This document shows positions 2,323 to 45,919 of a DNA stretch of 64,000 bases, in pieces. A model generated the notes under the pieces. It had not been told where the DNA came from. It did no database searches and was given only the letters and a program-made list of their open reading frames with translations. Origin of the DNA: Minisyncoccota bacterium (lineage in GTDB: Bacteria; Patescibacteriota; Minisyncoccia; Phycocordibacterales; CALRHW01). Numbering within the stretch: position 1 is the stretch's first letter; each line of letters opens with the position of its first letter. A program made the translations under genes and the position numbers. Location: positions 245,780 to 309,779 of the forward strand of contig JAXLZT010000001.1 in the NCBI GenBank assembly GCA_046350795.1, given 5' to 3'.

Positions 2323-2341
2323 GCGTGATAAAATTAAATAT

Positions 2342-2815
2342 ATGAAAGTAGCCAATATCTGTTTCTTGAGGAGAGGAGATGAGGTACTTTTGGCAATGAA
2401 AAAACGAGGATTTGGTGTGGATAAGTGGAATGGTCCTGGCGGTAAGATACAAGAAGGTGAGACCATAGAGGAAGCGACAGTGAGAGAAATAAAAGAAGAA
2501 ATCGACGTAGATATTGATAAAAAAGATTTACAAAAAGTAGCCGAGATCAATTTTTATTTTCCAGACAAAGAGGGATGGGACATGCTCGTTCATGTATTTT
2601 TTGTGGAGAGTTGGAAAGGCGAGCCAACAGAAAGTGAAGAGATGAGACCGCAGTGGTTTCCTATTTCAGAAATTCCATATGATGAAATGTGGCTGGATGA
2701 TAAGTACTGGCTGATGGATGCAATCAAGGGCAAAAAACTAAAAGCAAAATTTTATTTTAAGGGTGAGGGAAAAGAGATGGGAAAGTATGAGATAAAAGAA
2801 GTAGAGAGGTTTTGA
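2342..2815 (+). CDS. NUDIX hydrolase (MutT-like)
   Basis: Nudix box GPGGKIQEGETIEEATVREIKEEIDV. Confidence 0.75.
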   Translation: MKVANICFLRRGDEVLLAMKKRGFGVDKWNGPGGKIQEGETIEEATVREIKEEIDVDIDKKDLQKVAEINFYFPDKEGWDMLVHVFFVESWKGEPTESEEMRPQWFPISEIPYDEMWLDDKYWLMDAIKGKKLKAKFYFKGEGKEMGKYEIKEVERF

Positions 2816-3019
2816 AAACCGGTCTGGAAGCCAACTTGACTTTGAGGCCTATTTATGCTACTATTTATATAGGTAAATTAAGCTCTTTCACAACCTATTT
2901 GCAAGTATCGCCATAGCTCAAAGCGGCTTAAATTAGGCCTTTTTGGGCTATGGCGACAGCGCGTCGTCCTCTAGCTTCTAAAACCAGCCAGTTGCGCAAG
3001 CAATGGCATACAAGAAAGG

Positions 3020-3751
3020 ATGACAGCGATGAAGCCATCGACTGCATCAAAGACGTCGGTCAAGCGAATCAGTGCAGGTCAGAAGGAAGAAGGCACTCAG
3101 CTCGTTGTGAGTGCTACCCGTAAAGCGATGGGAGTTGCGATTGATGAGCTGTCCAATAGCGGCGTCATCAACAGTGTCAACTTCCAGCGTCTCATGGGGA
3201 AGGGAAATGTCATTGTCTCGGCGGTCACCGATCTCGTGAAGCAGAAAATTGCCGAGCTCGCGGAGGACATCTCCGGCTGTCTCAAGCTCATCTCGGATGC
3301 AGAAATCCTGCCCCTCGATGCAACAGACGGTAAGGAGACCATCTCACAAGTGCGCGATCTCTTCACCGGCTGGATCGACCCTTATTTCAAGAGTTGGGGT
3401 TGTGATGTCGCGAGCAAGCCCGCGGGTGCGGCGAATGTCGCAGTCCACGAGATGATCAAGGACGGCACATTCGCCCAGATCTTCAATGGGATGAGCGACG
3501 ATCTTGATGCTCTGTGTCTCTCGCAGGCCCAGATCATCAACTTCGTGAAGAAGCACCGCAAGTGGCTTCGCACGGATGGCCACTCCACGTTCTTCCTGTT
3601 CAAGGTCGGCGACGAATTCTTCGTTGCTGACGTGCGCGTGTACGACGATGGCCAGCTCGATGTCGACGTCTGCCGGTTCTCGGACGGCTTCGTCTGGGGC
3701 GCCGAGTATCGTCGTCGCGTCGTGGTTCCGCAACTGACTCTTGCAATCTAG
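3020..3751 (+). CDS. hypothetical protein in a GC-rich (~57%) compositional island
   Basis: A 243-aa ORF with an SD-like AAAGGA 7-8 nt upstream. Its GC content contrasts sharply with the ~35% flanks. The overlapping - strand ORFs are typical artefacts of GC-rich DNA. Confidence 0.5.
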   Translation: MTAMKPSTASKTSVKRISAGQKEEGTQLVVSATRKAMGVAIDELSNSGVINSVNFQRLMGKGNVIVSAVTDLVKQKIAELAEDISGCLKLISDAEILPLDATDGKETISQVRDLFTGWIDPYFKSWGCDVASKPAGAANVAVHEMIKDGTFAQIFNGMSDDLDALCLSQAQIINFVKKHRKWLRTDGHSTFFLFKVGDEFFVADVRVYDDGQLDVDVCRFSDGFVWGAEYRRRVVVPQLTLAI

Positions 3752-4011
3752 GTTCTCGAGCCCTTGGGCTCTTGGTCCCCTTGACTCTTTGCCAATTTAG
3801 TTTGGCGGTCAGGGGGATCTTTTCGTATAATAAAACTACATGCATGAATGTGTGGCGGCCATGGCTTCCTCACCACGCTTGTGAAAAGATACACTCGGGA
3901 ATTTTGCTGGATACGTCTTGCAGAAGAGTGAGTATATTTTTATCTAAATAAAAAATAGTTAGAAGGCTTTCTTTTTGTAAAAACGCTTAAAAATGCTAGT
4001 ATTTTGCATAT

Positions 4012-7000
4012 ATGAACGAATCGAAAGACGTATCCAAAAAAAGCGAGACAGCTCTAAACGAAGAAAAAATACTGAAATTTTGGGCCGAAAATGACATTTT
4101 TCAAAAAACTCTAAAAAAGCCTACTACCGAGGGCGACTTCGTATTTTATGAAGGACCTCCGACCGCCAATGGCAAGCCTGGTATTCATCATATTATTGCT
4201 CGTGTTTTCAAAGACGTGATTCCTCGATACAAAACGATGCGTGGTTTTCACGTGGATAGAAAAGGTGGTTGGGACACTCACGGTCTGCCTGTGGAAATAC
4301 AAGTAGAAAAACAACTTGGCCTAAAATCAAAGAAGGAGGTGGAGGCATATGGCGTAGAAAAATTTAATCAGGAGTGTAAAAAAAGTGTTTGGGAATATGT
4401 TGATTTGTGGAATGATTTTACTAGTCGTATCGGGTACTGGGTAGATCAAGAAAATCCATACATTACATATGAAAAAACATACATGGAGTCTGTGTGGAAT
4501 ATCTTGAAAAATATTTCTGAAAAAAAGACTGGTGGTGTGCTTGGCATTGGTGGAAAGGAAATGATCTACAAGGATTACAAAGTCCTACCTTGGTGTCCGC
4601 GTTGTGGTACGGCTCTTTCATCTCATGAGCTCGCGCAAGGATATGAAGACGTAAAAGATTTGTCTGTGTATGTGAAGTTTAAAGTTGTCGGCCAAGAAAA
4701 TACTTACTTGCTTGCGTGGACTACAACACCTTGGACATTGCCGGGCAACGTAGCGCTCGCTGTAGGGGAGGAAATGCAATACGCAGAAGTAGAATCAGAA
4801 AATGTAAAATATTTTTTGGCTGAAAAACTGGTAGAAAAAGTTTTTGCTGGAAAAGAAAATTATAAAATAATAAAAAAGTTTTCAGGAAAAAATCTCGTCG
4901 GTCTTGAATACGAACCTCTCTACCCATATCTTGCGGAAAAATTTGGCGACAAAGATCCTGAGGCTTTTGCGCGCGCATACAAAGTCTATTCGGCAGATTT
5001 TGTCACAACAGAAGATGGTACAGGCATAGTCCACACTGCTGTGATGTACGGACAAGAAGATTTTGATTTGGGTACAAAAGTAGGTCTACCAAAATTTCAT
5101 CTTGTAAAAGAAGACGGACATTTTCTCGATGATATGGATTTTCTTTCTGGAAGATTTGTAAAAGAAAAAGATGAAAAAGGGGAGGACACACTTGCGATAG
5201 ATATTATAAAAGATTTGGCGGGTCGAGGAATTCTTTTCAAAAAAGAAAAATACGCTCACACATATCCTCACTGCTGGCGATGCAAGACACCGCTCATATA
5301 TTACGCTCGAGACTCGTGGTATATCCGTATGTCTTCTTTGCGAGAGGAGCTTGTAAAAGAAAATGAAGATATAAATTGGCACCCAGAGCACATTCGTGAA
5401 GGACGTTTTGGCGAATGGCTTCGCGAAGTAAAAGACTGGGCTATTTCTCGTGAGAGATATTGGGGAACTCCTTTGCCTATATGGGAAGACAAAGATGGAG
5501 ATCGTATTTTTGTTGGTTCTATTTCGGAATTGAAATCATATATACCACAAAGAAATAAATTTACGCTTGTTCGTCATGGTGAGTCAGAAGCAAATACAAA
5601 AGATCTGATAGATTGTGATTACAAAAACAACGACTCACTTACAGAAAACGGAAGAGAAGAGGCAAAAAACGCCGGCAAAGTTGTTGCAGAAAAGAAAATT
5701 GATTTGATTTTCACCTCTCCTTTCAACAGGGCAAAAGAAACTGCTCAGATAATAGCAAAAGAGATTGGATTTGGTGGGGAGATTATCGAAGATGAAAGGC
5801 TGGGTGAGATTAGGCTCGGTCATTGGAGTGGAAAATCTTGGGAGAGTTATATTTCTTTGTTTAAAAACACACTAGAAAGATTTACAAAACATCCAGATCA
5901 CTCTTTGCAAAATATAGAAAATTGGGACGATTTGAGAGCTCGTGTTTCTGCTTTTATGTATGATATTGATTCAAAATATCAGGGCAAAAATATTCTCATT
6001 GTCGGACACGGAGGACCGCTAAATCTGATAGATCTAGCTTCTTTGGGTTATTCAAAAAAGGAAATGGCAAAACATTATCTCGATGATTCTTTTATGAATG
6101 CAGAAGCGCGAGATATTGATTGGAGAAATCTACCACACAATGAAAATTTTGAAATAGATTTGCATAGACCTTTTATAGACAACGTCGTTTTGGTGGATAA
6201 AGAGGGAAAAGAATACAAGCGTGTCAAAGAAGTGCTAGATGTGTGGTTTGACTCTGGTGCAATGCCTTTTGCTCAGATGCATTATCCTTTTGAAAAAGAT
6301 ACACAAGCTTTGGCATATCCAGCTGATTATATTTCCGAAGCGATAGATCAGACTCGTGGATGGTTTTACACCCTTCACGCTATTGGAATCTTGATGGGAA
6401 TGGGGAAGGCTTACAAAAATGTAATATGTCTTACTCATATTTTGGATGCGCACGGCAAAAAGATGTCAAAATCTGTCGGCAACGTAGTCGATCCTTGGGA
6501 AATGATGGATAAATACGGTGTAGACGCTTTGCGCCTTTGGATGTTTACGGTAAATCAGCCGGGAGACTCAAAGAATTTTGATGAAAAGACAGTTGATGAA
6601 GTAGTAAAAAAAGTATTCAACTTGATCACAAACATCGTTTCTTTCTATGAAATGTATGCTGATGAAAATGTGGTCGCTAGTGCTCAAAGTCAAAACGTGT
6701 TGGACAAATGGATAATCACGAGAATGCATCGTGTTATTTCAGATGGTACAAATGCCCTTGATAGCTACGATGTATTTTCTGCTGGCCGAGCAATACGCGA
6801 TTTTGTTTCTGATTTTTCTACTTGGTATATCAGACGCTCACGCGATCGATTTAAGTCAGATGATTTACTCGATAAAGCAAACGCTCTATCTACTACAAAA
6901 TATGTTTTGCTAGAGCTCGCAAAGTACATGGCGCCGTTTACTCCTTTTTACGCAGAAACTTTGTATCAAAAAGTAGGCGGAAAGCTAGAAAGTGTGCATC

Positions 7001-7533
7001 TGGAGGATTGGACAGAGGGGGAGATAAAGTCGGTAGGAGATGTTGTGGTCCTAGAAGATATGCAGGAAGTGAGAAATATAGTAAGTGTTGGACTAGAGCT
7101 ACGATCAAAGGCAAATATAAAAGTGCGCCAACCTATTTCAAAAATTACAATAAAATCAAACAGAGTTCAGGGTAGAGAAGATTTGGTAGATCTAATAAAA
7201 GATGAATTAAACGTAAAAGAAGTCGTCTTTGATAGTGCTCTGGCTAATGATGCAGAAATAGACACAAATATTTCAGAAGAGCTACGCTTGGAGGGACAAA
7301 TGAGAGAGTTTGTAAGAGCTGTGCAAGATTTAAGAAAAAATAAAAACCTTACAGTGGGTGACAATGCAAGACTTTTTGTCTCAACAAATGAAAAAGGCAA
7401 AAAATTAATAGAAGATTTTTCTTCAGAGATAAAGAGGATTACTCTCATAAGTGAGATTGTTTACAAAGATTTTTCTGGAGAAAAAATACAGGTAGAAGAT
7501 CTAGAGTTTGTTCTTGAGATAGAAAAAATCTAG
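4012..7533 (+). CDS. ileS: isoleucyl-tRNA synthetase (type 2 / eukaryote-like) carrying an inserted histidine-phosphatase domain
   Basis: It has HIGH-like PGIHH, WAISRERYWGTPLPIW and KMSKS motifs and the CP1 editing region TTPWTLPGNVA. About 200 extra residues between PLPIW and DLHRPFID carry the RHGE...GHGG motifs. Confidence 0.95.
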   Translation: MNESKDVSKKSETALNEEKILKFWAENDIFQKTLKKPTTEGDFVFYEGPPTANGKPGIHHIIARVFKDVIPRYKTMRGFHVDRKGGWDTHGLPVEIQVEKQLGLKSKKEVEAYGVEKFNQECKKSVWEYVDLWNDFTSRIGYWVDQENPYITYEKTYMESVWNILKNISEKKTGGVLGIGGKEMIYKDYKVLPWCPRCGTALSSHELAQGYEDVKDLSVYVKFKVVGQENTYLLAWTTTPWTLPGNVALAVGEEMQYAEVESENVKYFLAEKLVEKVFAGKENYKIIKKFSGKNLVGLEYEPLYPYLAEKFGDKDPEAFARAYKVYSADFVTTEDGTGIVHTAVMYGQEDFDLGTKVGLPKFHLVKEDGHFLDDMDFLSGRFVKEKDEKGEDTLAIDIIKDLAGRGILFKKEKYAHTYPHCWRCKTPLIYYARDSWYIRMSSLREELVKENEDINWHPEHIREGRFGEWLREVKDWAISRERYWGTPLPIWEDKDGDRIFVGSISELKSYIPQRNKFTLVRHGESEANTKDLIDCDYKNNDSLTENGREEAKNAGKVVAEKKIDLIFTSPFNRAKETAQIIAKEIGFGGEIIEDERLGEIRLGHWSGKSWESYISLFKNTLERFTKHPDHSLQNIENWDDLRARVSAFMYDIDSKYQGKNILIVGHGGPLNLIDLASLGYSKKEMAKHYLDDSFMNAEARDIDWRNLPHNENFEIDLHRPFIDNVVLVDKEGKEYKRVKEVLDVWFDSGAMPFAQMHYPFEKDTQALAYPADYISEAIDQTRGWFYTLHAIGILMGMGKAYKNVICLTHILDAHGKKMSKSVGNVVDPWEMMDKYGVDALRLWMFTVNQPGDSKNFDEKTVDEVVKKVFNLITNIVSFYEMYADENVVASAQSQNVLDKWIITRMHRVISDGTNALDSYDVFSAGRAIRDFVSDFSTWYIRRSRDRFKSDDLLDKANALSTTKYVLLELAKYMAPFTPFYAETLYQKVGGKLESVHLEDWTEGEIKSVGDVVVLEDMQEVRNIVSVGLELRSKANIKVRQPISKITIKSNRVQGREDLVDLIKDELNVKEVVFDSALANDAEIDTNISEELRLEGQMREFVRAVQDLRKNKNLTVGDNARLFVSTNEKGKKLIEDFSSEIKRITLISEIVYKDFSGEKIQVEDLEFVLEIEKI

Positions 7534-7540
7534 CTATAAA

Positions 7541-8152
7541 ATGGCGCATCATATATATACGACAGAGGGTTTTGTGTTAGATAGCCTTCCTTTTGGCGAA
7601 GGCAACTCTTTCATTTACTTATTTACTCGTGATCTAGGTCTTGTGGGTGCGAGCGCAAGGAGTGTTAGAGATATAAAATCAAAACTCAGATACGGTCTGC
7701 AGACTTTCTGTCGGTCTACTGTTTCTTTGGTGCGTGGAAAAAATGAGTGGAAAGTCACAAGCGCTTTACCAAAGAAAAATTTTTACTATATTTTTTCTCA
7801 AAAAGATACAGTCCAACACGGTGCTGAAAAATTTTTAGTTTGTGCGCATGTTTTGTCTATTATAAAAAAGCTTGTAGCGGGTGAAGAAAAAAATGAAGCG
7901 CTTTTTGATATTGTGCAGTCTGGCTTTGATTTTTTAGAAGACAACGCCTTAAACAAAGAAGAGGTGTCTTTTTTTGAATGCATTTTAATGCTCCGTATAG
8001 TTTCAAATCTGGGTTATCTCACATCGGATCATGACTTAAGGGTGTTTGTAGAAAGTAAAGATTGGAACAGCGATCTACTGGTACAAATGGAAAAATATAA
8101 AAAGAAAGCAATTTTTGAGATTAATAAGTCAATAAGAGAAAGTCAGCTATAG
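7541..8152 (+). CDS. recO: DNA repair protein RecO-like
   Basis: The N-terminal pattern TEGFVLDSLPFGEGNSFIYLFTRDLGLVGASARSVRDIKSKL resembles the RecO OB-fold N-terminus. Confidence 0.5.
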   Translation: MAHHIYTTEGFVLDSLPFGEGNSFIYLFTRDLGLVGASARSVRDIKSKLRYGLQTFCRSTVSLVRGKNEWKVTSALPKKNFYYIFSQKDTVQHGAEKFLVCAHVLSIIKKLVAGEEKNEALFDIVQSGFDFLEDNALNKEEVSFFECILMLRIVSNLGYLTSDHDLRVFVESKDWNSDLLVQMEKYKKKAIFEINKSIRESQL

Positions 8153-8183: not shown

Positions 8184-10124
8184 ATGGGTCCAAATAAAGT
8201 TGAAAGTAAAATAGATCGTCGCGAGCGCGACTTGTACTCGAGAAATGTTCCTCAAGAAAAGGAGCCTGTACGAGGGGGTTTTACAAAGCCAAACTACGAT
8301 GTGTCTAATGATTGGCAAAACAAAGATTCTTTTGCTAGTGCACTCACCCAAGAGATTACAGATACAGAAAAGAAAAGTAAGTTTTTTAAATTTTTCTTTA
8401 TTGGTTCTGTAGGCTTTTTTGTGGTTGCTGTATCGTTTTTCATATATATGTCTTATGGTGGTTTCAATGCTGTATCTTCTAAAAATTTGGATATAAATAT
8501 ACAGGCACCAGTGTCTATAGGTGGTGGTGAGGAACTCGTTTTGGATATAGTGGTGACCAATAACAACAATGTACCACTTGAGAGCGCTCAATTATTGGTG
8601 GAGTATCCGGAGGGTACTAGAGAGGTTTTGGATTTATCCAAAGATCTTTTGCGACAGACAGAGACACTCGGTCCAATCGCTTCTGGTGAGAGTGTGACAA
8701 AGACAGTAAAAGCTGTTTTGTTTGGAGAGAAAAATACATCTAAAGATATAAAGGTGAGTGTGGAGTACAAAGCTCAGGGTTCAAATGCAACATTTACAAA
8801 AGAAAAAGATTATCCTATCGTCATTCAATCTTCGCCGGTTATATTTACTGTAGATTATGCAAAAGAGGTAAATAGCAATCAGAAAATGGATCTGACTATT
8901 TCAGTGACATCCAACTCAAATACTATTATAGAAAATTTACTTGTACGTGCGGATTATCCTTTTGGTTTTTCTTTGGATAGTGCCACACCTCAGGCGTCTT
9001 TTGATAATAATGTATGGAGCATTGGTGATCTAAAACCAAAGGAAAAGAGAGTGATAAAAATTTCTGGAAAAATAGAGGGGCAAAATGATGAAGAGAAAAC
9101 TTTTAGATTTAGCGCTGGTACTGCAACATCAGAAGATGAAAAGTTGATAGGGGTAGATTTTATTTCTTCTGCCGAGACCGTAATGATTAGAAAACCATTT
9201 TTTGATGTAAAGTTGGCTTTAGAAAATGATGAGAGCAAGGAATATCTCGCTGAGATAGGCCAGTCCATAAAGGCCAATATCTCTTGGACCAACAATTTAC
9301 CTGTAAGTGTAAATGATGCGGTGCTTGAAGTGACTCTTGGTGGTAGCGCCCTAGACAGAAACAAAGTTTCTACAGATCAACGCGGTTTTTATCAGTCTTC
9401 TGCCAATAAAATAACTTGGAATAAAAATACAGCGCCGTCTCTTTCAGAAATAAATCCGGGTGAGAGTGGAAGTTTCAATTTTGATTTTAGTACTTTGTCG
9501 AATTCTGCTCAAAATATTTTTGCTTTACGCAATCCAGAAATAAATCTCGATATAACAATTAAGGGTGTTAGGTTTTCTGATTCAGAGCCACCACAAGAGA
9601 TCTCGTACTCTTTTTCAAGAAAAGTAAAAGTGATTACACAGGCTACATTTGGTGCACGAATGGTGTATTCGACTGGGCCATTTGAAAATAGAGGCCCCAT
9701 CCCTCCAAAGGCAGAAAAAGAGACTACATATACTGTGATTTGGACACTTAGTAATGCATTCAATGATCTGACCAACACGTCTGTATCAGCTTCCTTACCT
9801 CCATATGTAAAATGGGAAAATGTAAAAAGCCCTTTGTCTGATAAGATTTTGTATAATCCCACAACAAACAAGGTGGTTTGGGAGCCAGGAGAAATAAAAG
9901 CAGGAGTTGGATATTCTAGCTCTCCGCGCGAGGTGGCATTTCAGGTATCTTTCTTGCCGAGCCTTGGGCAGGTGGGATTTGTACCAAAGATTATTGAAGA
10001 TGTTACTTTTACTGGGCAAGATAGATTTACTTTAAAAAATATCTCAATTACGAATGCCCCTCTGACTACTCGCATTAGCACTGATCCGGCATTTGATTTT
10101 ACAGACGATGTGGTTGTAAAGTAG
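8184..10124 (+). CDS. hypothetical membrane-anchored extracellular protein (CARDB/DUF11-like repeats)
   Basis: 646 aa with an N-terminal TM helix (FFIGSVGFFVVAVSFFIYM) and a long beta-rich ectodomain. Confidence 0.55.
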   Translation: MGPNKVESKIDRRERDLYSRNVPQEKEPVRGGFTKPNYDVSNDWQNKDSFASALTQEITDTEKKSKFFKFFFIGSVGFFVVAVSFFIYMSYGGFNAVSSKNLDINIQAPVSIGGGEELVLDIVVTNNNNVPLESAQLLVEYPEGTREVLDLSKDLLRQTETLGPIASGESVTKTVKAVLFGEKNTSKDIKVSVEYKAQGSNATFTKEKDYPIVIQSSPVIFTVDYAKEVNSNQKMDLTISVTSNSNTIIENLLVRADYPFGFSLDSATPQASFDNNVWSIGDLKPKEKRVIKISGKIEGQNDEEKTFRFSAGTATSEDEKLIGVDFISSAETVMIRKPFFDVKLALENDESKEYLAEIGQSIKANISWTNNLPVSVNDAVLEVTLGGSALDRNKVSTDQRGFYQSSANKITWNKNTAPSLSEINPGESGSFNFDFSTLSNSAQNIFALRNPEINLDITIKGVRFSDSEPPQEISYSFSRKVKVITQATFGARMVYSTGPFENRGPIPPKAEKETTYTVIWTLSNAFNDLTNTSVSASLPPYVKWENVKSPLSDKILYNPTTNKVVWEPGEIKAGVGYSSSPREVAFQVSFLPSLGQVGFVPKIIEDVTFTGQDRFTLKNISITNAPLTTRISTDPAFDFTDDVVVK

Positions 10125-11455
10125 TGTATAAACAAAAAACAATGAAAAAACCAGAAAATGATGTAATGGAAAAGATAGTCTCTCTTTGTAAAAGAAGGGG
10201 ATTTATATACCAGGGTTCAGAGATATACGGTGGTTTGGCTGGTACATGGGATTACGGCCCACTTGGCGTGACTCTAAAAAATAATATAAAAAACCTTTGG
10301 TGGAATAGGTTTGTCGATAGTCGCACCGATATGTATGGAGTGGATACTGCCCTTTTAATGAATCCAAAAGTGTGGGAAGCGAGTGGTCATGTCAGTGGTT
10401 TTTCGGATCCTTTGGTAGAGTGTAAAAAATGTAAGCGTCGTTTTCGCGCAGATCATATTGAAGACAAAAATAAATGTCCTGAATGTGAGGGTGAACTCGG
10501 TGAAGAAAAGCAGTTTAACATGATGTTCAAGACTAATGTTGGTGCATCACAGGATGAGTCTTCTGTATCATATCTTCGTCCAGAGACTGCGCAGGGTATG
10601 TTTGTAAATTTCAAAAATGTTCTTGACTCTTTTCATCCTAGACTTCCTTTCGGTCTAGCACAAATAGGTAAGGCTTTTAGAAATGAAATTGCTCCGCGTG
10701 ATTTTGTCTTCCGCACACGTGAGTTTGAACAAATGGAAATAGAATATTTTGTGCGCGAGAATGATTGGAAAAAAGAGTTTGAAAAATGGCGAGAAGAAAT
10801 GATCTCTTGGATGAAAGATGTCGGTCTTTCAGAAAAAAACATCCATGAGCTCGAAGTGGAAGGTAATGATCTCGCGCACTATTCAAAGCGCACGATTGAT
10901 TTTGAATACGATTTTCCTTTTGGTCGCAAAGAGCTTTATGGCCTTGCGTATCGCACGGATTTTGATTTGAAAAATCACAGTGAGGCAAGTGGCACAGATC
11001 TCTCATACTACGAAGAAGAGTCAAAAGAAAGATTTACTCCTCATGTCATAGAGCCGACTTTTGGTGTAGATAGGACAATACTTGCTGTACTTTCTGAAGC
11101 GTATACAGAAGACGAGCTTGGTGGTGAGGGCGAGACTCGTGTGTATCTCAAGCTCCCAGCACATATTGCACCTGTAAAAGTTGCCGTTTTTCCTTTACTT
11201 AAAAATAAGCCGGCTCTAATAGAAAAAGCAAAAGAAGTCTTTGCACAGCTTAAATCGACTTATGGCGCTGTGGTATTTGATGACAATGGAAACATAGGTA
11301 AGAGATATCGACGTCAGGATGAAATAGGTACTCCGTATTGTGTGACTGTAGACTTTGACACCCTTGAGGACGATACGGTGACTGTGCGCGATAGAGATAC
11401 AGGAAAGCAGTCTCGCGTAAAAATATCTGAGCTATCTGAAGCGATAAAAATCTAG
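10124..11455 (+). CDS. glyQS: glycyl-tRNA synthetase (alpha2 type)
   Basis: The N-terminal FIYQGSEIYGGLAGTWDYGPLG and class II motifs fit GlyRS. The start is GTG at 10124 or ATG at 10142. Confidence 0.9.
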   Translation: MYKQKTMKKPENDVMEKIVSLCKRRGFIYQGSEIYGGLAGTWDYGPLGVTLKNNIKNLWWNRFVDSRTDMYGVDTALLMNPKVWEASGHVSGFSDPLVECKKCKRRFRADHIEDKNKCPECEGELGEEKQFNMMFKTNVGASQDESSVSYLRPETAQGMFVNFKNVLDSFHPRLPFGLAQIGKAFRNEIAPRDFVFRTREFEQMEIEYFVRENDWKKEFEKWREEMISWMKDVGLSEKNIHELEVEGNDLAHYSKRTIDFEYDFPFGRKELYGLAYRTDFDLKNHSEASGTDLSYYEEESKERFTPHVIEPTFGVDRTILAVLSEAYTEDELGGEGETRVYLKLPAHIAPVKVAVFPLLKNKPALIEKAKEVFAQLKSTYGAVVFDDNGNIGKRYRRQDEIGTPYCVTVDFDTLEDDTVTVRDRDTGKQSRVKISELSEAIKI

Positions 11456-12546: not shown

Positions 12547-14007
12547 ATGTCTGAAAGAAATTTATACATTACGACGACTCTGCCGTACGTCAATTCAGAT
12601 CCTCATGTTGGATTTGCCCTAGAGATAGTACATGCAGATATTATGGCTCGCTACAAAAAACTGTGCGGTTTTGATGTGTTTTTTAATACAGGAACGGATG
12701 AGCATGGTTCAAAAGTTCATGCAAAAGCTTTGGAGAATGGTAAAGATCCTCAGGAATACGTAAATGAATATGCAGAAAAGTTTAAGGGTTTAAAAAAAGT
12801 ACTCGGTCTTTCAGAGGATATAAATTTTATACGCACTACAGATGAATTTCATAAAAAATCAGCGCAGGCTTTTTGGAAAAAATGTGCTGACAATGGATAC
12901 ATTTACAAGAAAAATTACAAGATGAAATATTGTGTTGGTTGTGAGCTAGAAAAAACAGATTCAGAGCTTGTTGATGGAAAATGTCCGATACATCCCAATA
13001 CCGAACTCCAGCTTATAGAAGAGGAAAACTATTTTTTCAAATTTAGTGATTTTCAGGAGAGACTTTTGAAACTATATGAAGACAGGCCGGATTTTGTGCT
13101 GTCGTCATCTCGTTTTAATGAAATAAAATCTTTTGTGTCTCGTGGACTAGAAGATTTTAGTATTTCACGTCTCAAATCAAAAATGCCTTGGGGTGTGCCT
13201 GTGCCAGGGGATGATGAACAGGTGATGTATGTTTGGTTTGATGCTCTTGTAAACTATGTCTCAGCTATTGGTTGGCCAGATGATATGGAGAAATTTAATA
13301 AATATTGGCCGGTAGTGCAGTTTGCTGGAAAAGACAATCTTCGTCAGCAATCAGCAATGTGGCAAGCGATGCTTATGGCCGCCGACATTGAGCCATCAAA
13401 GCAAATAGTCATCCACGGTTTTATAAACAGTGGAGGACAAAAAATGTCTAAATCACTTGGAAATGTCATAAATCCTTACGATGTTGTATCTGAATACGGC
13501 ACGGACGCTTTGAGATATTTTCTCGCTCGAGAAATGAATACGTTTGAGGACAGTGATTTTACAATGGAAAAATTTAAAGAGAGCTACAATGCCAATCTGG
13601 CAAATGGTATTGGTAACCTAACTAGTAGAATAATGAAGATGGCGGAGACTCATCTAGAGTCGAGTGGACTTTCAACGCCAGATAGTTTTAATGCACTTCT
13701 ACATTTACAAAGTGAGGAGGGAAAAGAATATAAAGAAGCTTTGGATTCTTTTGATATAAAAAAAGCATCTGACATTATTTGGAGAGAAATAAAACAAACT
13801 GACGCTTTTATTCAGAGTGAACAGCCGTTCAAATTAATAAAAATGGATTTGGAAAAAGGCAAAACGCAGATTAAGAGATTTGTTGTCTATCTTGCTCGCA
13901 TAGCTGTAATGCTCGAGCCTGTTTTACCCGACACTGCGCAAAAAATAAAAGATGCAATAAAAGCAAATGCAATGCCCAGCGCACCACTTTTTGCTCGTAA
14001 AGACTAA
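12547..14007 (+). CDS. metG: methionyl-tRNA synthetase (minimal form)
   Basis: It has the HIGH-like PYVNSDPHVGF and KMSKSLGN motifs. Confidence 0.9.
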   Translation: MSERNLYITTTLPYVNSDPHVGFALEIVHADIMARYKKLCGFDVFFNTGTDEHGSKVHAKALENGKDPQEYVNEYAEKFKGLKKVLGLSEDINFIRTTDEFHKKSAQAFWKKCADNGYIYKKNYKMKYCVGCELEKTDSELVDGKCPIHPNTELQLIEEENYFFKFSDFQERLLKLYEDRPDFVLSSSRFNEIKSFVSRGLEDFSISRLKSKMPWGVPVPGDDEQVMYVWFDALVNYVSAIGWPDDMEKFNKYWPVVQFAGKDNLRQQSAMWQAMLMAADIEPSKQIVIHGFINSGGQKMSKSLGNVINPYDVVSEYGTDALRYFLAREMNTFEDSDFTMEKFKESYNANLANGIGNLTSRIMKMAETHLESSGLSTPDSFNALLHLQSEEGKEYKEALDSFDIKKASDIIWREIKQTDAFIQSEQPFKLIKMDLEKGKTQIKRFVVYLARIAVMLEPVLPDTAQKIKDAIKANAMPSAPLFARKD

Positions 14008-31041: not shown

Positions 31042-31804
31042 TTTAAAAAATCGCAGGATTAAAAGAGGATCGTGTACAGAAGTTTTTTGACAAAAATCAC
31101 ATGAAAAGCCCGAGGGCGATTTATGTGATCATTCCTGTCGCACACCCTTTTTCTGAGGTCTTAGTGGTGTGAAGACAGGTGCAGAAACTGTTATATATGA
31201 TTGTTAATTATATGTAACAGAGTAAAAAGAAACTGTCGCGAAAGCGACAGAGTAAGTTAAATATTGTGGTTTTTAAATTTCCTAATAGGAAATTTAAGAG
31301 CATATGGTGGATGCCTTGACTCTAAGAGGCGAAGAAGGACGTGGTCTGGCTGCGATAAGCTTCGGGGAGGTGCCTAGCAACCTTTGATCCGAAGATTTCC
31401 GAATGGGGAAACCCTATAGCGTAAGCTATAATCATGCACTTGATGTGTGATGCAAACTCTGGGAAGTAAAACATTTCAGTACCAGAAGGAAAAGAAACTA
31501 ACAAGCATTTCCTTAGTAGCGGCGAGCGAAAAGGAAGAAGCCCAAACCGAGCTTCATTCTCACGATGCATTTATGTGTTGTGGGAATGACGCTCGGGGTT
31601 ATAAGACGACAACTCAATTTATATTGAGAGAGTTACAAAACATTTTGTTAATGGAATACGCTGGAAAGCGTGACCCTAGGGGGTAATAGTCCCGTACATG
31701 AAAATAAAATGTCTCTTACGTTGTTGTTCTTGAGTACCTCAAGACACGTGTGGCTTGAGGGAATTTACCGGAACTAACCGGAAAGGCTAAATACTCTTAG
31801 AGAT

Positions 31805-31841
<37 letters not shown>

Positions 31842-33260
31842 CAACCCGATTAGGGTGGTGAAATAGACCTGAAACCATATGCTTACAAGGAGTCAGAGCG
31901 GACGTCGCAAGACTGTTCCGTCATGGCGTGCCTATTGAAGAATGAGCCAACGAGTTTATGTATGCTGCAGGCTAAGTGCGAGAGCATGGAGCCATAGGGA
32001 AACCGAGTGTGAATAGCGCGTTTGTAGTATATATAAGACCCGAAGCCAAGTGAGCTTGCCATGAGCAGGGTGAACTTATGAGAAATCGTAAGGGAGGCCC
32101 GAACCGATAAGCCGTGCAATACTTCCGGATGACTTGTGGTAAGAAGTGAAAAGCTAATCGAACTTGGTAATAGCTGGTTCTCTCCGAAATAGCTTTTGGG
32201 CTAGCGTCGAGTGTACCCTAGAGGGGTAGAGCACTGGATGGTTTAAACAGGGCGAAAGCTCGTTAAACCAATCAAACTCCGAATACTCTAGATTAATTAC
32301 TCGGCAGTTAGACTCTGGGGGCTAAGCTCCAGTGGTCAAAAGGGAAACAGCCCGGATCTCAAGTTAAGGTCCCTAAATCAACGCTAAGTGCACTTAAGGT
32401 GGTAGAATTTCTCAGACACTGAGGAGGTTGGCTTAGAAGCAGCCATCCTTTAAAGAAAGCGTAACAGCTCACTCAGTAAGAGATTTTGCGCCGCAGATAA
32501 TCGGGGCTAAGCGTAGTACCGAAACTGAGGATGTGTCGTCGATTCGTCGATGATACGTGGTAGGAGAGTATTCTTGTCTGCTGTGAAGGCAAAGGGGTGA
32601 CCCATGCTGGAGCGTCAAGAAGTAAGAATGTTGGCACAAGTAACCGCAATGCGGGTGAGAGTCCCGCACACCGAAAGACTAAGGTTTCCTTGGCAATGTC
32701 AATCATCCAAGGGTTAGTCGGGCCTAAGGCAATGGAGAAATCCGCAGCCGATGGACACATGGTTAATATTCCATGACTTCTGTATACAGCGATGGAAGGA
32801 CGGAGTTCAGTATGTTTCGCATGTTATTGGATTTGTGTTCGTGTTGTAAGAAAGCTTCACAGGTAAATCCGTGAACTGATTTAAATATCGATTTCAAGCA
32901 AAGCGAAAATGTCGGGTAACCGGCAAATGAAACAAAGCGAGCTTCCAAGAAAATTTTCTAAGCTTATGTATATAGGATCCGTACCGCAAACCGACACAGG
33001 TAGTCAGCTCGAGTAGAGTAAGGTGAACGAGTGAGAGGTCCCCAAGGAACTCGGCAAAAAAGCAGCCGTAACTTCGGAATAAGGCTTGCCCTTCGCAAGA
33101 AGGGCCGCAGCTAAAGTATCTCTGGCAACTGTTTATCAAAAACACAGCTCCCTGCGAACTCGTAAGAGGATGTATAGGGGGTGACACTTGACCAATGCCA
33201 GAAGGTCAAACAACGACTGTCTGCTTTCGCAAGATTGCAGGCCGATTGTTGTAAGCCCTG

Positions 33261-33295
<35 letters not shown>

Positions 33296-33512
33296 TCTGA
33301 GATTATCGCAAGATGATTTCAGAATGACTGGGACTGTTATGTGGCAAAGTGGCTGTTTAGATAAACGAAAAAGTTAAATCATTACATAAAAATGCTACCT
33401 ACTTTGTAGTAATACAAAGTCAGTCAAAATGTGGTTGGCAAGAGACCAACGCCACACATCCTACTCCGAAGAGAGGATGAAGATAGAGTCCGTCTGTGTA
33501 AAGGAATAGACG
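33296..33512 (+). other. putative ORF-less group I intron in 23S (E. coli ~1917 region)
   Basis: It inserts between the conserved CGGTCCTAAGGT and AGCGAAATTCCTTGTC. The 5' exon ends in U and the insertion ends in G. Confidence 0.55.
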
Positions 33513-34175
33513 AGCGAAATTCCTTGTCAGGTAAGTTCTGACGCGCACGAATAGTGTAATGACTGGAGAACTGTCTCGGGGACTTGCTCGGTGAAAATAC
33601 AGTACCGGTGAAGATGCCGGTTACCTGCAGTTAGACGAAAAGACCCCAGGAGCTTTACTGCAACTTGATATTGCATGTATGTTTTTTATGCGTAGCGTAG
33701 ATGGGAGGATTTGAAGTTTATCTTTCGGGGTAGATGGATCCGACAGTGAAATACCATTCTTAAAAAATATACCTGCTAACCCACACGGAAAAAACGAGCG
33801 GGGACAGTATCTGGCGGGCAGTTTTAGTGGGGCGCTATCCTCCTAAAGAGTAACGGAGGAGTTTATTAAGGTCAGCTAGGCGCGAATGGAAACCGTGCCG
33901 ATAGTGTAATGGCATAAGCTGGCTTAACTGTAAGACGTACTTGTCGAGCAGATACGAAAGTAGAACATAGTGAACCGACCATGCGCATTAGAGGCGGTGG
34001 GAGATTATCGGATAAAAGCTACCCTGGGGATAACAGGCTGGTTGTGCCTAAGAGTCCATATCGACGGCACAGTTCGGCACCTCGATGTCGGCTCTACTTA
34101 TCCTGGAGGTGGAGAAGCTTCCAAGGGTATGGCTGTTCGCCATTTAAAAAGTAACGCGAGCTGGGTTCAGACCGT

Positions 34176-34456
34176 TCAGAGGCAGATGAGTAATCGCCCT
34201 TGAGCAATCTGAATCCTCAGAGGAATTGTTTGAAATGTTTTTGTTTTTGAAAAAGAAAGTGAAACCAACCAATCACGGCGGTCGCACAATGCGTAAAGCA
34301 ATGCGCGATTAAAGCTGATGAATATCGATGAAACCCCAATGGGCAACGTCGAGGGAAGTCGAAAGACACCCGTAGAGACTACATATCGGCCGTGACGCGG
34401 ACAACACGTGTACACGAAGGCATAGTCCAATGCACACAGTAATGTGTGGGAACATG
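34176..34456 (+). other. putative ORF-less group I intron in 23S (E. coli ~2593 region)
   Basis: It inserts between GGGTTCAGACCGT and CGTGAGACAGGTTGGTC. The 5' exon ends in U and the insertion ends in G. Confidence 0.55.
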
Positions 34457-34832
34457 CGTGAGACAGGTTGGTCTCCTATCTACTGCAGGCGTTGATTCTT
34501 GAGGAGATTTGACTCTAGTACGAGAGGACCGAGTTGAACTGACCTCTGGTCTATCTGCTGTCACGCCAGTGGCACCGCAGAGTAGCTATGTCGGGAATGG
34601 ATAACTTCTGAAAGCATCTAAGAAGGAAGCCAACTCCAAGATTAGGAATCGTTTGAGACTCGTGAGAGATGATCACGTTGATAGGCTTTAGGTATAAGCA
34701 CAGTAATGTGTTGAGCCGAGAAGTACTAATAAGTCGATTCTATTAGGAAATTTGAAAACCATCTTTTTACTCTGTTACATGGGATGAACAATCCTGTGAT
34801 TTATGCAGTTATTTGAAAACTAAATACTGAAG

Positions 34833-34905
34833 ATAAAATTGCTCTTATAGCTCAGCGGCAGAGTGTCGGCGTGCCACGCCGAAGGTCGTTGGTTCAAATC
34901 CAACT
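34833..34905 (+). tRNA. tRNA-Gly (GCC)
   Basis: It folds by hand into a cloverleaf (acceptor GCTCTTA/TGAGAGC, anticodon loop GTGCCAC). It lies between 23S and 5S. Confidence 0.75.
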
Positions 34906-35142
34906 GAGAGCTTCCCGCCAAGGGAACGGGCGGGTGTTGGTTGCGTTGGCCCAACCTTAGGGAGTCCTGGAGCTTGGTGTCGGAGCCAAGAAGTTGTCTG
35001 CTACCACGACGGAAGCAGGTACTCCAGGCTCTCTGAGGGCCAAGCAAGACGTTGTTCTTTGTTTATTTTCAGTCACAAGAGCTTTGCTCTCGTGTTCAGT
35101 ATTTAGTTTTCAAATGACGCTTGGTTTTTTGAATCTTTAGTT

Positions 35143-35250
35143 TTGGTGGCTCGACGTGGTGGTCACACCCCTTCCCATTCCGAACAGGGCAGTTAAGCAC
35201 CATAGTGCCGATGATACTCCGATGAGGGGGAAAGTAGGTAGCCGCCAGAA
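35143..35250 (+). rRNA. rrf: 5S rRNA
   Basis: It has CCCATTCCGAACAGGGCAGTTAAGC...GTGCCGATGATACTCC and a terminal helix TGGTGGC/GCCGCCA. Confidence 0.85.
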
Positions 35251-43108: not shown

Positions 43109-43400
43109 GGTGAAATCCCTATAAAAGATATAGGGATGTACTTTGAAATTACTTATACGTATTCACATACGTGCAAGTCAAAAGTTTATTCAAAAATAAG
43201 GAAATTACATTTCCTTGTTTCGACGGCGCTCGGACGATGTGGAAGCAAGCTTCCACTCGCTCCTCGCTTGTCGAAATAATTTCGGATTAAAAAGTTCTGG
43301 GCAGAAAGGACTCTTAAAAACAGGGCGCATTTTAGAAAGATACTATTTTCTATTTTGTTCCGTTCAACAAAAATTTGTCTTCAAAAATAAATTTTTACTA

Positions 43401-44889
<1,489 letters not shown>

Positions 44890-45191
44890 AAATGAAAATC
44901 GTTCTGTTGTTTTTACAACAAAACTTACAGTCGATTTCTGAGCCTCAATTGAGCTCAGAAACGGATTATTGCTAAATATCCTAAAAGTAGCATGACAATC
45001 GGAAAGACGGTTTGAACGGAACAAAATAAAGAATAGTATCTAGAAAAATCGCATACGAAAGTGTGCGGTTTTTCTTTTGTTTGGGTCTTGGGTAGTATCA
45101 TTGACAAATAGTATTTTTAATGATAAGATATAGTGTAGAGCCTGATGATTGAAAACGTGCGTTTTCTCTTACTCAGGAAGTTCTTGGAGAT

Positions 45192-45845: not shown

Positions 45846-45919
45846 GCGCGCATAGCTCAGCTGGTAGAGCATTCGACTGATACTCGAAAGGTCCTAGGTT
45901 CGACTCCTAGTGCGCGCAC
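45846..45919 (+). tRNA. tRNA-Ile (GAU)
   Basis: Hand-folded cloverleaf (acceptor GCGCGCA/TGCGCGC, anticodon loop CTGATAC). It is the typical 16S-23S spacer tRNA. Confidence 0.8.

Follow-up and report, generated by a model that had tools for sequence, protein, structure and literature searches.

Why would an enzyme as conserved as an aminoacyl-tRNA synthetase (aaRS) carry a complete phosphatase domain inside its core? The question is raised by ileS, the gene for isoleucyl-tRNA synthetase (IleRS), of a Minisyncoccota bacterium (GenBank assembly GCA_046350795.1). It lies in a stretch of 64,000 nucleotides of contig JAXLZT010000001.1 (positions 245,780 to 309,779, forward strand), which was analysed as a whole and is herein called the window; coordinates are those of the window. 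An earlier note on this DNA had drawn attention to a histidine phosphatase domain in the synthetase. We show that the window holds a phosphatase module of Patescibacteria, dedicated to IleRS, in one of its states. Five states occur in the phosphatase family: nested in the CP3 subdomain of IleRS (the common one), nested at three other sites, present twice per IleRS, encoded by a separate gene immediately 5' of an insert-less ileS, and lost. As to its role, the reading we favour from sequence comparison is a dispensable, putatively active phosphomonoesterase that is probably functionally coupled to IleRS.

The aaRSs are among the most conserved enzymes, and to our knowledge hardly any catalytic domains other than those for editing have so far been found within their cores. 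The chemistry kept with one synthetase in the present case is a different one (phosphomonoester hydrolysis, as predicted), and it recurs across a large part of the Candidate Phyla Radiation (CPR), at several insertion sites or as an operon partner. CPR genomes are minimal, and neutrality is improbable for the extras they retain. A core enzyme of translation thus appears to work with a partner enzyme not described before. Like the earlier note, we found no description of a histidine phosphatase or phosphoglycerate mutase in IleRS or any aaRS, CPR/Patescibacteria included, in the searchable literature, which mostly leaves out subscription journals; the architecture is already implicit in precomputed Pfam annotations.

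The nested domain and its host synthetase

The 1173-residue protein is an IleRS by the NCBIfam model TIGR00392, which matches it in two stretches (899.9 bits; cut-off 621.4). In Pfam, the tRNA-synt_1 match is interrupted by His_Phos_1, and Anticodon_1 and DUF5915 are matched as well. The closest solved structures are those of type-2 IleRS (IleRS2) from P. megaterium (8c8w) and T. thermophilus (1ile). The parts of the gene are given below (all on the + strand), with subdomain names after PMC7191050 and PMC7955072.

4012-7533, + strand: ileS, type-2 isoleucyl-tRNA synthetase with nested phosphatase domain; a single uninterrupted open reading frame (ORF) of 1173 aa, stop codon included
4012-5553, + strand: N-terminal IleRS part, aa 1-514, with the first half of the Rossmann fold, CP core, CP1 editing domain, CP2, CP2-3 linker and first half of CP3; pairs with residues 2-476 of 8c8w
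4180-4191, + strand: class I signature in the non-canonical form GIHH, aa 57-60, read from the sequence
4717-4737, + strand: editing motif WTTTPWT, conserved, as is the second editing motif GTGIVHTA
5437-5466, + strand: CP2-3 linker WAISRERYWG, aa 476-485; the insert begins 30 residues downstream
5554-6123, + strand: nested histidine-phosphatase domain (His_Phos_1, PhoE-like), aa 515-704; boundaries from the alignment with free-standing homologues
6124-6156, + strand: linker RNLPHNENFEI, aa 705-715, leading the chain back into CP3; read as a scar in some insert-less relatives
6157-7530, + strand: C-terminal IleRS part, aa 716-1173, with the second half of CP3 (DLHRPFID...), second half of the Rossmann fold, anticodon-binding domain and C-terminal DUF5915 domain; pairs with residues 479-1027 of 8c8w, in agreement with Pfam
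6460-6474, + strand: KMSKS motif, conserved among homologues

The earlier note had proposed an in-frame fusion of about 200 extra residues between the WAISRERYWGTPLPIW and DLHRPFID blocks, and the reading frame is indeed continuous from 4012 to 7533. In a phmmer alignment with 8c8w, query residues 5-509 pair with chain residues 2-476 and query residues 708-1073 with 479-849. Since these stretches abut in 8c8w, about 198 residues take the place of a 2-residue surface loop in CP3, and the insertion point falls exactly between the two blocks. Their spacing is about 222 residues in the window IleRS versus 23-61 in insert-less relatives, which are 945-1010 aa long. The comparison with type-2 IleRS thus reveals a true insertion and not a normal CP region. 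Its first residue, N515 of the motif N-x-Y/F-F-x-x-RHGE, is invariant and belongs to the phosphatase according to the alignment with free-standing homologues.

CP3 is the segment after the W-x-x-S-R-x-R-Y-W-G linker (459-526 in ScIleRS, 473-534 in CaIleRS), and in T. thermophilus IleRS it bears a zinc motif (PMC7191050, PMC7955072). In insert-less relatives a 2 x CxxC knuckle flanks the insertion point, and the phosphatase sits between the two halves of what these relatives have as a zinc knuckle. The cysteines are present in the T. thermophilus and P. megaterium enzymes and are kept in about half of the insert-bearing relatives (47 of 87 representatives), whereas the window protein lacks them.

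Outside the insert, the window IleRS is collinear with the type-2 (eukaryote-like, mupirocin-resistant) enzymes 8c8w and 1ile (E 7e-239; template-modelling scores 0.79-0.89) and shares their C-terminal DUF5915 domain. The GXHH form of the class I signature is known from IleRS2, where experiments tie it to mupirocin hyper-resistance (PMC10485003). A link between this form and the insert was considered and rejected: G/AXHH and HXGH stand at 28:50 in insert-bearing and 30:22 in insert-less sequences, with no exclusive association. The NCBIfam exception models for acquired mupirocin-resistance IleRS (MupA/MupB) give 775 and 795 bits, below their cut-off of 1900. With its activation (GIHH, KMSKS) and editing motifs kept, the window IleRS looks functional, and we infer that it isoleucylates and edits. 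The 64-kb window holds no second ileS.

The full-length AlphaFold2 model is confident (predicted local distance difference test, pLDDT, 88.5; predicted template-modelling score, pTM, 0.80; linkers above 90) and superposes on type-2 and eukaryotic IleRS entries with target-normalised template-modelling scores of 0.76-0.89. Modelled alone, the phosphatase domain reaches a pLDDT of 92.7 and adopts the alpha/beta fold of its superfamily, so that structure prediction supports a confidently nested domain. The profile search suggested in the note likewise detects His_Phos_1 (PF00300) at aa 518-689 of the whole protein (E 1.8e-36, 126.1 bits against the Pfam cut-off of 21.7); for the segment 5545-6140 alone the match is E 5.8e-38 and 130.9 bits. 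All three motifs quoted earlier are present, namely RHGE (aa 521-524), SPxxR (569-573) and GHGG (665-668). The catalytic residues follow, with their conservation in an alignment of the query and its 120 closest homologues (121 sequences, 55-95% identity).

5572-5577, + strand: R521-H522 of the RHG motif, H522 being the predicted phosphoryl-accepting nucleophile; 121/121
5593-5595, + strand: N528, phosphate-pocket Asn; 121/121
5728-5730, + strand: R573, second phosphate-binding Arg (SPxxR); 121/121, with S569 invariant too
5806-5808, + strand: E599, predicted general acid/base; 117 Glu and 4 Asp of 121
6007-6009, + strand: H666, second catalytic His (GHGG); 121/121

The catalytic core of branch-1 histidine phosphatases (RHG His, two Arg, second His and acidic proton donor) is therefore complete, and the hexad reads RHNREH in 117 sequences and RHNRDH in the other 4. 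In the same alignment the mean pairwise identity is 0.40 for the insert versus 0.71-0.76 for the IleRS core, which corresponds to a roughly 1.9 times faster divergence of the insert. That the hexad is kept in so fast-diverging a domain points to selection on catalysis and not on mere bulk. We hold with some confidence that the domain is a working enzyme with standard superfamily chemistry, and that selection maintains a physical or genetic tie between its activity and IleRS, with the phosphatase in an accessory role. By that chemistry, H522 would attack a phosphomonoester and become phosphorylated, R521, N528, R573 and H666 would hold the phosphoryl group, and E599 would protonate the leaving group and then activate water.

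Which histidine phosphatase is it? The earlier note had spoken of the phosphoglycerate mutase branch; the superfamily assignment stands, but that of a mutase proper does not. Models for phosphoglycerate mutase (dPGM) fall short (NF038349 95-101 bits versus 225; TIGR01258 41-47 versus 81.7; PRK dPGM models far below cut-off), and dPGMs in the PDB align with the insert only over its first ~100 residues. In E. coli dPGM the mutase-specific substrate-binding residues are Tyr92, Lys100, Arg116/117 and Asn186 of the HGN motif. At the corresponding positions the insert has L602 for Tyr92 (V/A/L/F in the family), W610 for Lys100 (W/V/I/F) and G668 for Asn186 (G/A/I/S). Other candidates failed as well: alpha-ribazole phosphatase CobC (TIGR03162, 97-102 bits versus 162.9), phosphoserine phosphatase PspA (NF045917, 73-78 versus 350) and phosphohistidine phosphatase SixA (TIGR00249, 33 versus 74.5). 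Free-standing relatives likewise miss the curated cut-offs for CobC, PspA and SixA. The fold is equally near PspA, archaeal-type dPGM, GpgP and CobC; superfamily members that act on proteins give lower scores across shorter alignments (SixA 17.6 over 134 aa, PGAM5 14.8, Sts-2 14.8).

With the cut-offs missed and the dPGM residues absent, we file the domain as an unclassified PhoE-like subfamily (of PhoE/PspA/CobC-like character) and not as a mutase; metabolic reconstructions may miscount it as one. Its identity to PhoE (YhfR of Geobacillus stearothermophilus, 1h2e/1ebb), PspA (4ij5), CobC (6e4b) and the riboflavin-pathway HFP (9mmh) is only 26-28%. These four are free-standing, whereas the window domain is of a kind nested in or encoded beside IleRS, forms a clade of its own and scores below the curated family cut-offs. 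A role in anti-phage defence was dropped, as the PADLOC-DB models matched neither the nested domain nor its free-standing relatives P0275 and P0278.

A module in five states

The insert is common among relatives. PF00133 and PF00300 occur together in all 120 closest homologues, and among the 150 best-matching IleRS representatives from a library of 1.84 billion (clustered at 50% identity), 94 carry the insert, down to about 36% identity, while the other 56 do not. Insert-bearing members bear the names Zambryskibacteria, Minisyncoccia, Campbellbacteria, Parcubacteria and Peregrinibacteria, a survey based on submitters' names of protein-cluster members and not on GTDB genomes. The same architecture is found in independent assemblies (NCBI, JGI, ENA, Logan). 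The survey of CPR relatives called for in the earlier note thus finds the same insertion in many of them; the nested phosphatase is no isolated curiosity but a lineage trait of wide occurrence that also comes split, relocated and duplicated.

Two observations concern the labels of these relatives. At NCBI, many insert-bearing IleRSs (P0032, P0049, P0063, P0078, P0083, P0095, P0163) go by no more than "class I tRNA ligase family protein", an effect, presumably, of the insertion on naming rules; JGI calls them isoleucyl-tRNA synthetase. The closest public genome (L001, CAYOFR010000008.1) shows 99% identity over a protein query spanning insert and flanks and 95-97% DNA identity over the region. 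It is labelled "uncultured Candidatus Saccharibacteria bacterium", which may be inaccurate since the other relatives are all labelled Parcubacteria, Minisyncoccia or Patescibacteria.

The module is also lost. On a neighbour-joining tree built from the IleRS core, sequences with and without the insert are intermixed, and the nearest insert-less relative, P0122 (61% identity), adjoins the query and P0121. P0122 and four further insert-less IleRSs (P0142, P0146, P0161, P0188) retain the LP-x-N/D-E...DLHRP linker that usually accompanies the insert. Segment 705-715 is gapped in about 43 of 53 insert-less representatives and kept in these five; P708 is found in 66 of 87 insert-bearing ones. We read the retained linker as a deletion scar. 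The P0122 locus runs argS-ileS-recO with the linker scar and no phosphatase gene, and P0142 likewise has neither a nested nor an adjacent phosphatase at its locus, which makes the module dispensable.

Where present, the domain is not bound to one place. At least four insertion sites, mapped on IleRS landmarks and each Pfam-confirmed, can be told apart. Site A is CP3 (>84 representatives). Site A' lies between DLHK and WFESG and holds the second copy of P0220. Site B, after WFESG-SMPYA, is used in P0216 and in P0251 from Peregrinibacteria. At site C, where the catalytic domain gives way to the anticodon-binding domain, lie the sole copy of P0156 and the second copy of P0203. Two His_Phos domains thus occur in P0220 (536-715 and 753-940) and in P0203 (493-679 and 870-1055). 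The P0220 form is represented by three cluster members on nine contigs and is therefore no assembly accident. In a crude domain tree the second copies of both proteins group more closely with generic free-standing phosphatases than with the CP3 copies, a hint that they were acquired independently and did not arise by duplication within the gene. P0262 combines a site-A phosphatase with a P-loop kinase-like domain of ~170 aa at site B (residues ~725-910). The latter has the Walker A motif GACGAGKT, scores above the Pfam cut-offs for AAA_18, AAA_33 and Zeta_toxin, and shows weak PDB similarity to APS kinases, shikimate kinases and Pnkp1.

Finally, the phosphatase can be a gene of its own. A search with the insert only returned free-standing His_Phos proteins of 175-215 aa. 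The closest of these lie directly upstream of an insert-less ileS in all five informative loci, out of a handful of contexts looked up; a sixth contig was too short to inform on adjacency. P0275 overlaps the next gene, that of a 945-aa IleRS, by 4 bp. P0278 lies between argS and the gene of a 965-aa IleRS. P0276 precedes that of a 977-aa IleRS with one 238-aa ORF between. P0271 precedes an IleRS truncated by the contig end, and P0273, flanked by argS and ileS, shows an overlap of stop and start codons. Such stop/start overlap of phosphatase and ileS is seen in L009, L011 and L022. In the crude neighbour-joining domain tree the ileS-adjacent proteins form one clade within the CP3 copies, with generic His_Phos proteins outside. 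The fused, split, relocated and lost forms together make a series of natural variants for probing what the phosphatase does for IleRS.

More distant free-standing His_Phos proteins (P0282, P0283) have unrelated contexts. At L013 4447-6172 (complete 840-kb genome OZ246406.1), two free-standing His_Phos genes stand in tandem, their stop and start codons overlapping, and genes for a HAD hydrolase and an alpha/beta hydrolase come next; the two His_Phos proteins are more distant relatives of the insert in a non-ileS context. At L019 1280-2182, a 300-aa fusion (P0306) joins HIT (histidine triad nucleotide hydrolase) to a His_Phos_1 domain 32% identical to the insert, in an uninformative context. It is a possible hint that relatives of the insert act on nucleotides.

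What the phosphatase may do for IleRS

If the domain is active, as we think, it would be an accessory function of IleRS that is not required for aminoacylation itself. Tethering would provide 1:1 stoichiometry and co-localisation and not a precisely shared active site, because several insertion sites and a split form are tolerated. The fold is that of capped small-molecule phosphatases, which makes a macromolecular substrate less likely. Our best guess, a speculative one, is a small phosphomonoester, most plausibly of the ribose-phosphate or nucleotide type, that would be processed on the synthetase or close to it.

A step further, and more tentative still, is the idea that isoleucylation in Patescibacteria has an accessory activity overlooked so far, the nested or adjacent phosphatase, and that this phosphatase is coupled mechanistically to IleRS. 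It might remove a phosphorylated nucleotide or metabolite that the synthetase makes or is inhibited by, it might restore a phosphorylated tRNAIle acceptor end, or Ile or tRNA binding might gate its activity and so relay translation status to metabolism. With any of the three, if true, the editing domains would be joined by a new class of catalytic domain associated with aaRSs.

Parallels for such an arrangement can be found. In bacterial ProRS the INS editing domain is nested in the core in some lineages and is a separate protein (YbaK/ProXp) in others, just as the IleRS phosphatase is nested or separate by lineage. These are aminoacyl-tRNA deacylases with a proofreading role, whereas the IleRS insert has a phosphomonoesterase fold with no known link to aminoacylation. 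His_Phos_1 is likewise fused to a partner enzyme of a related pathway in PFK-2/FBPase-2, in mycobacterial MutT1 (Nudix and RHG) and in Rv2228c-type RNase H/acid phosphatase. A core synthetase also carries an unrelated enzyme-fold domain in NF040702 (isoleucine--tRNA ligase, N-acetyltransferase domain-containing), a model that matches only the IleRS part of the window protein (335 bits against a cut-off of 1999), and in the GlyRS beta subunit with its HD domain. The latter has lost its catalytic His-Asp doublet and acts in tRNA binding (PMC8464048); the IleRS insert, by contrast, keeps all catalytic residues.

Several findings weigh against a coupled, active phosphatase. Every curated NCBIfam equivalog cut-off (CobC, archaeal dPGM, PspA, SixA) is missed, so that no function can be transferred by homology. 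Close relatives do without the module. Some free-standing members show changes near the RHG motif, with P0271 reading RHFFV and N528 not kept in P0274, P0277 and P0278. The host and domain trees are neighbour-joining trees from saturated distances and carry no support values. Insert and host show only weak to moderate co-divergence (Mantel r 0.33 and 0.20, reached in 0/499 and 0/999 permutations), a modest positive correlation that is compatible with mainly vertical descent and not decisive. Lastly, the dispensability in close relatives and the tolerance of four insertion sites both speak against tight mechanistic integration and would fit a merely co-expressed housekeeping enzyme.

The last point leads to the alternative that survives best, although we think it unlikely: a hitch-hiking housekeeping enzyme, such as a PspA-type phosphoserine phosphatase or short phosphoglycerate mutase, whose gene by chance stood 5' of ileS in an ancestral operon and was later captured into a permissive loop, the fusion securing expression with no link to isoleucylation. 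The free-standing form in an argS-hisphos-ileS operon is in keeping with this, as the neighbourhood could predate the fusion. So are the losses, the several sites, the equal nearness of the fold to PspA, archaeal-type dPGM, GpgP and CobC, and the lack of a second His_Phos gene in the 64-kb window. On the other hand, simple read-through cannot turn an upstream gene into an internal domain, the dPGM-specific residues are replaced (L602, W610, G668), and no curated cut-off is reached. Moreover, at least four sites, double copies and retention from Parcubacteria to Peregrinibacteria, always in or by the same host protein, make chance capture hard to credit.

More doubtful is the healing of tRNA ends, in which the domain would strip a 3'-phosphate, a 2'-phosphate or a pyrophosphorylated or cleaved CCA remnant from tRNAIle for recharging on the same enzyme. 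The location is suggestive, as the insert sits in CP3 just past the CP2-3 linker, which in yeast IleRS helps line the pocket for tRNA A76 or reveromycin (PMC7955072). The kinase-like domain of P0262 recalls kinase-plus-phosphatase modules of RNA repair, and the choice between nested and free-standing forms resembles trans-acting aaRS editing factors (ProRS INS/YbaK). The free-standing ileS-adjacent proteins are also very basic, with a median isoelectric point (pI) of 9.9. However, this largely tracks the basic proteomes of those genomes (their neighbours, IleRS included, are also basic in two of four), and nested copies are acidic to neutral, at a pI of about 5.6-6.8 (5.6 for the query domain). 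The capped small-molecule fold, with protein- or polymer-directed relatives scoring lower, argues against a polymer substrate too, and there is no obvious reason why tRNAIle alone should need healing. We know of no histidine phosphatase that acts on RNA ends.

We regard as improbable a regulatory or non-catalytic module, which would bind a phospho-metabolite (e.g., a glycolytic intermediate) or, SixA/PGAM5-like, dephosphorylate IleRS or another protein, and so adjust aminoacylation to the metabolic state or lift an inhibitory phosphorylation close to the KMSKS loop. Sites A, A' and B are all found in the stretch from the CP2-3 linker to KMSKS, the RHG domain of MutT1 acts on phospho-histidine proteins, and the uneven pattern of gains and losses would be in keeping with an accessory that is regulatory or serves in an arms race. 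The HD domain of GlyRS beta offers a precedent for a phosphohydrolase fold with a non-hydrolytic role (PMC8464048).

An artefact of assembly, an intein or a selfish mobile element as the source of the extra 190 residues can be practically dismissed: the sporadic occurrence on the IleRS tree, a free-standing copy beside the target gene (superficially like homing elements) and an HN at aa 709-710 are set against a continuous frame that recurs in independent assemblies, a histidine phosphatase fold with no HINT/intein match in Pfam that starts with N515-K-F and not Cys/Ser (the earlier note had also argued against an intein), an H709-N710 that falls within the linker past the domain, has Glu as its next residue and belongs to an LPHN also seen in insert-less IleRS, selection on phosphatase and not nuclease residues, the permutation-backed correlation of insert and host distances, and an insert GC content (0.35-0.36) near that of the whole gene.

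The surrounding locus and the rest of the window

Around ileS, the window reads dUTPase-argS-Nudix-ORF-ileS::His_Phos-recO-DUF11. The flanking genes are as follows.

652-2322, + strand: argS, ArgRS of 556 aa, assigned by Pfam; part of the conserved argS-(phosphatase)-ileS-recO synteny
7541-8152, + strand: recO-like gene directly 3' of ileS, with RecO_N and RecO_C

The order of argS as in the window is seen at L007, L009, L011, L017, L022 and L002, and a recO-like gene also follows ileS at L007, L011 and L017.

Between argS and ileS (window 2323-3965) lie a MutT-like Nudix gene (2342-2815) and a 243-aa ORF (3020-3751) that has 54-58% GC versus about 38% around it and matches no family. Both genes are absent from L001, 95-97% identical to the window, in which argS abuts ileS. 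In L002 and L003 the Nudix gene is present and the slot is filled by another ORF, of 234/235 aa (GC 0.51-0.52 versus 0.40 for the locus), and BLASTP finds no similarity between this ORF and that of the window. The slot seems to hold a fast-evolving or exchangeable gene. A non-coding RNA in the ~1 kb stretch of 50-62% GC upstream of ileS was rejected, as L002 and L003 both have the conserved + strand 234/235-aa ORF and Rfam gives no match. A MutT1-like partnership of Nudix protein and phosphatase is kept as a weak lead only: the Nudix gene is absent in L001 and L004, and the phosphatase domain of MutT1 is SixA-like.

Farther downstream, the rRNA genes are unlinked and in an unusual order, with 23S at 31280-34750, tRNA-Gly(GCC) at 34841-34912, 5S at 35142-35250, then ~8 kb of protein genes, 16S at 43394-44893 and tRNA-Ile(GAU) at 45846-45918. 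The 23S match spans 3471 nt against a model of 2925 nt and hence contains about 545 nt of extra sequence; no intron family was found in this region at Rfam gathering thresholds.

Four aaRS genes fall within 14 kb of the window: ArgRS (652-2322), IleRS (4012-7533), a class II enzyme with tRNA-synt_2b and HGTP_anticodon domains (10124-11455), and a class I enzyme that matches the IleRS core (12547-14007, E 1.5e-14).

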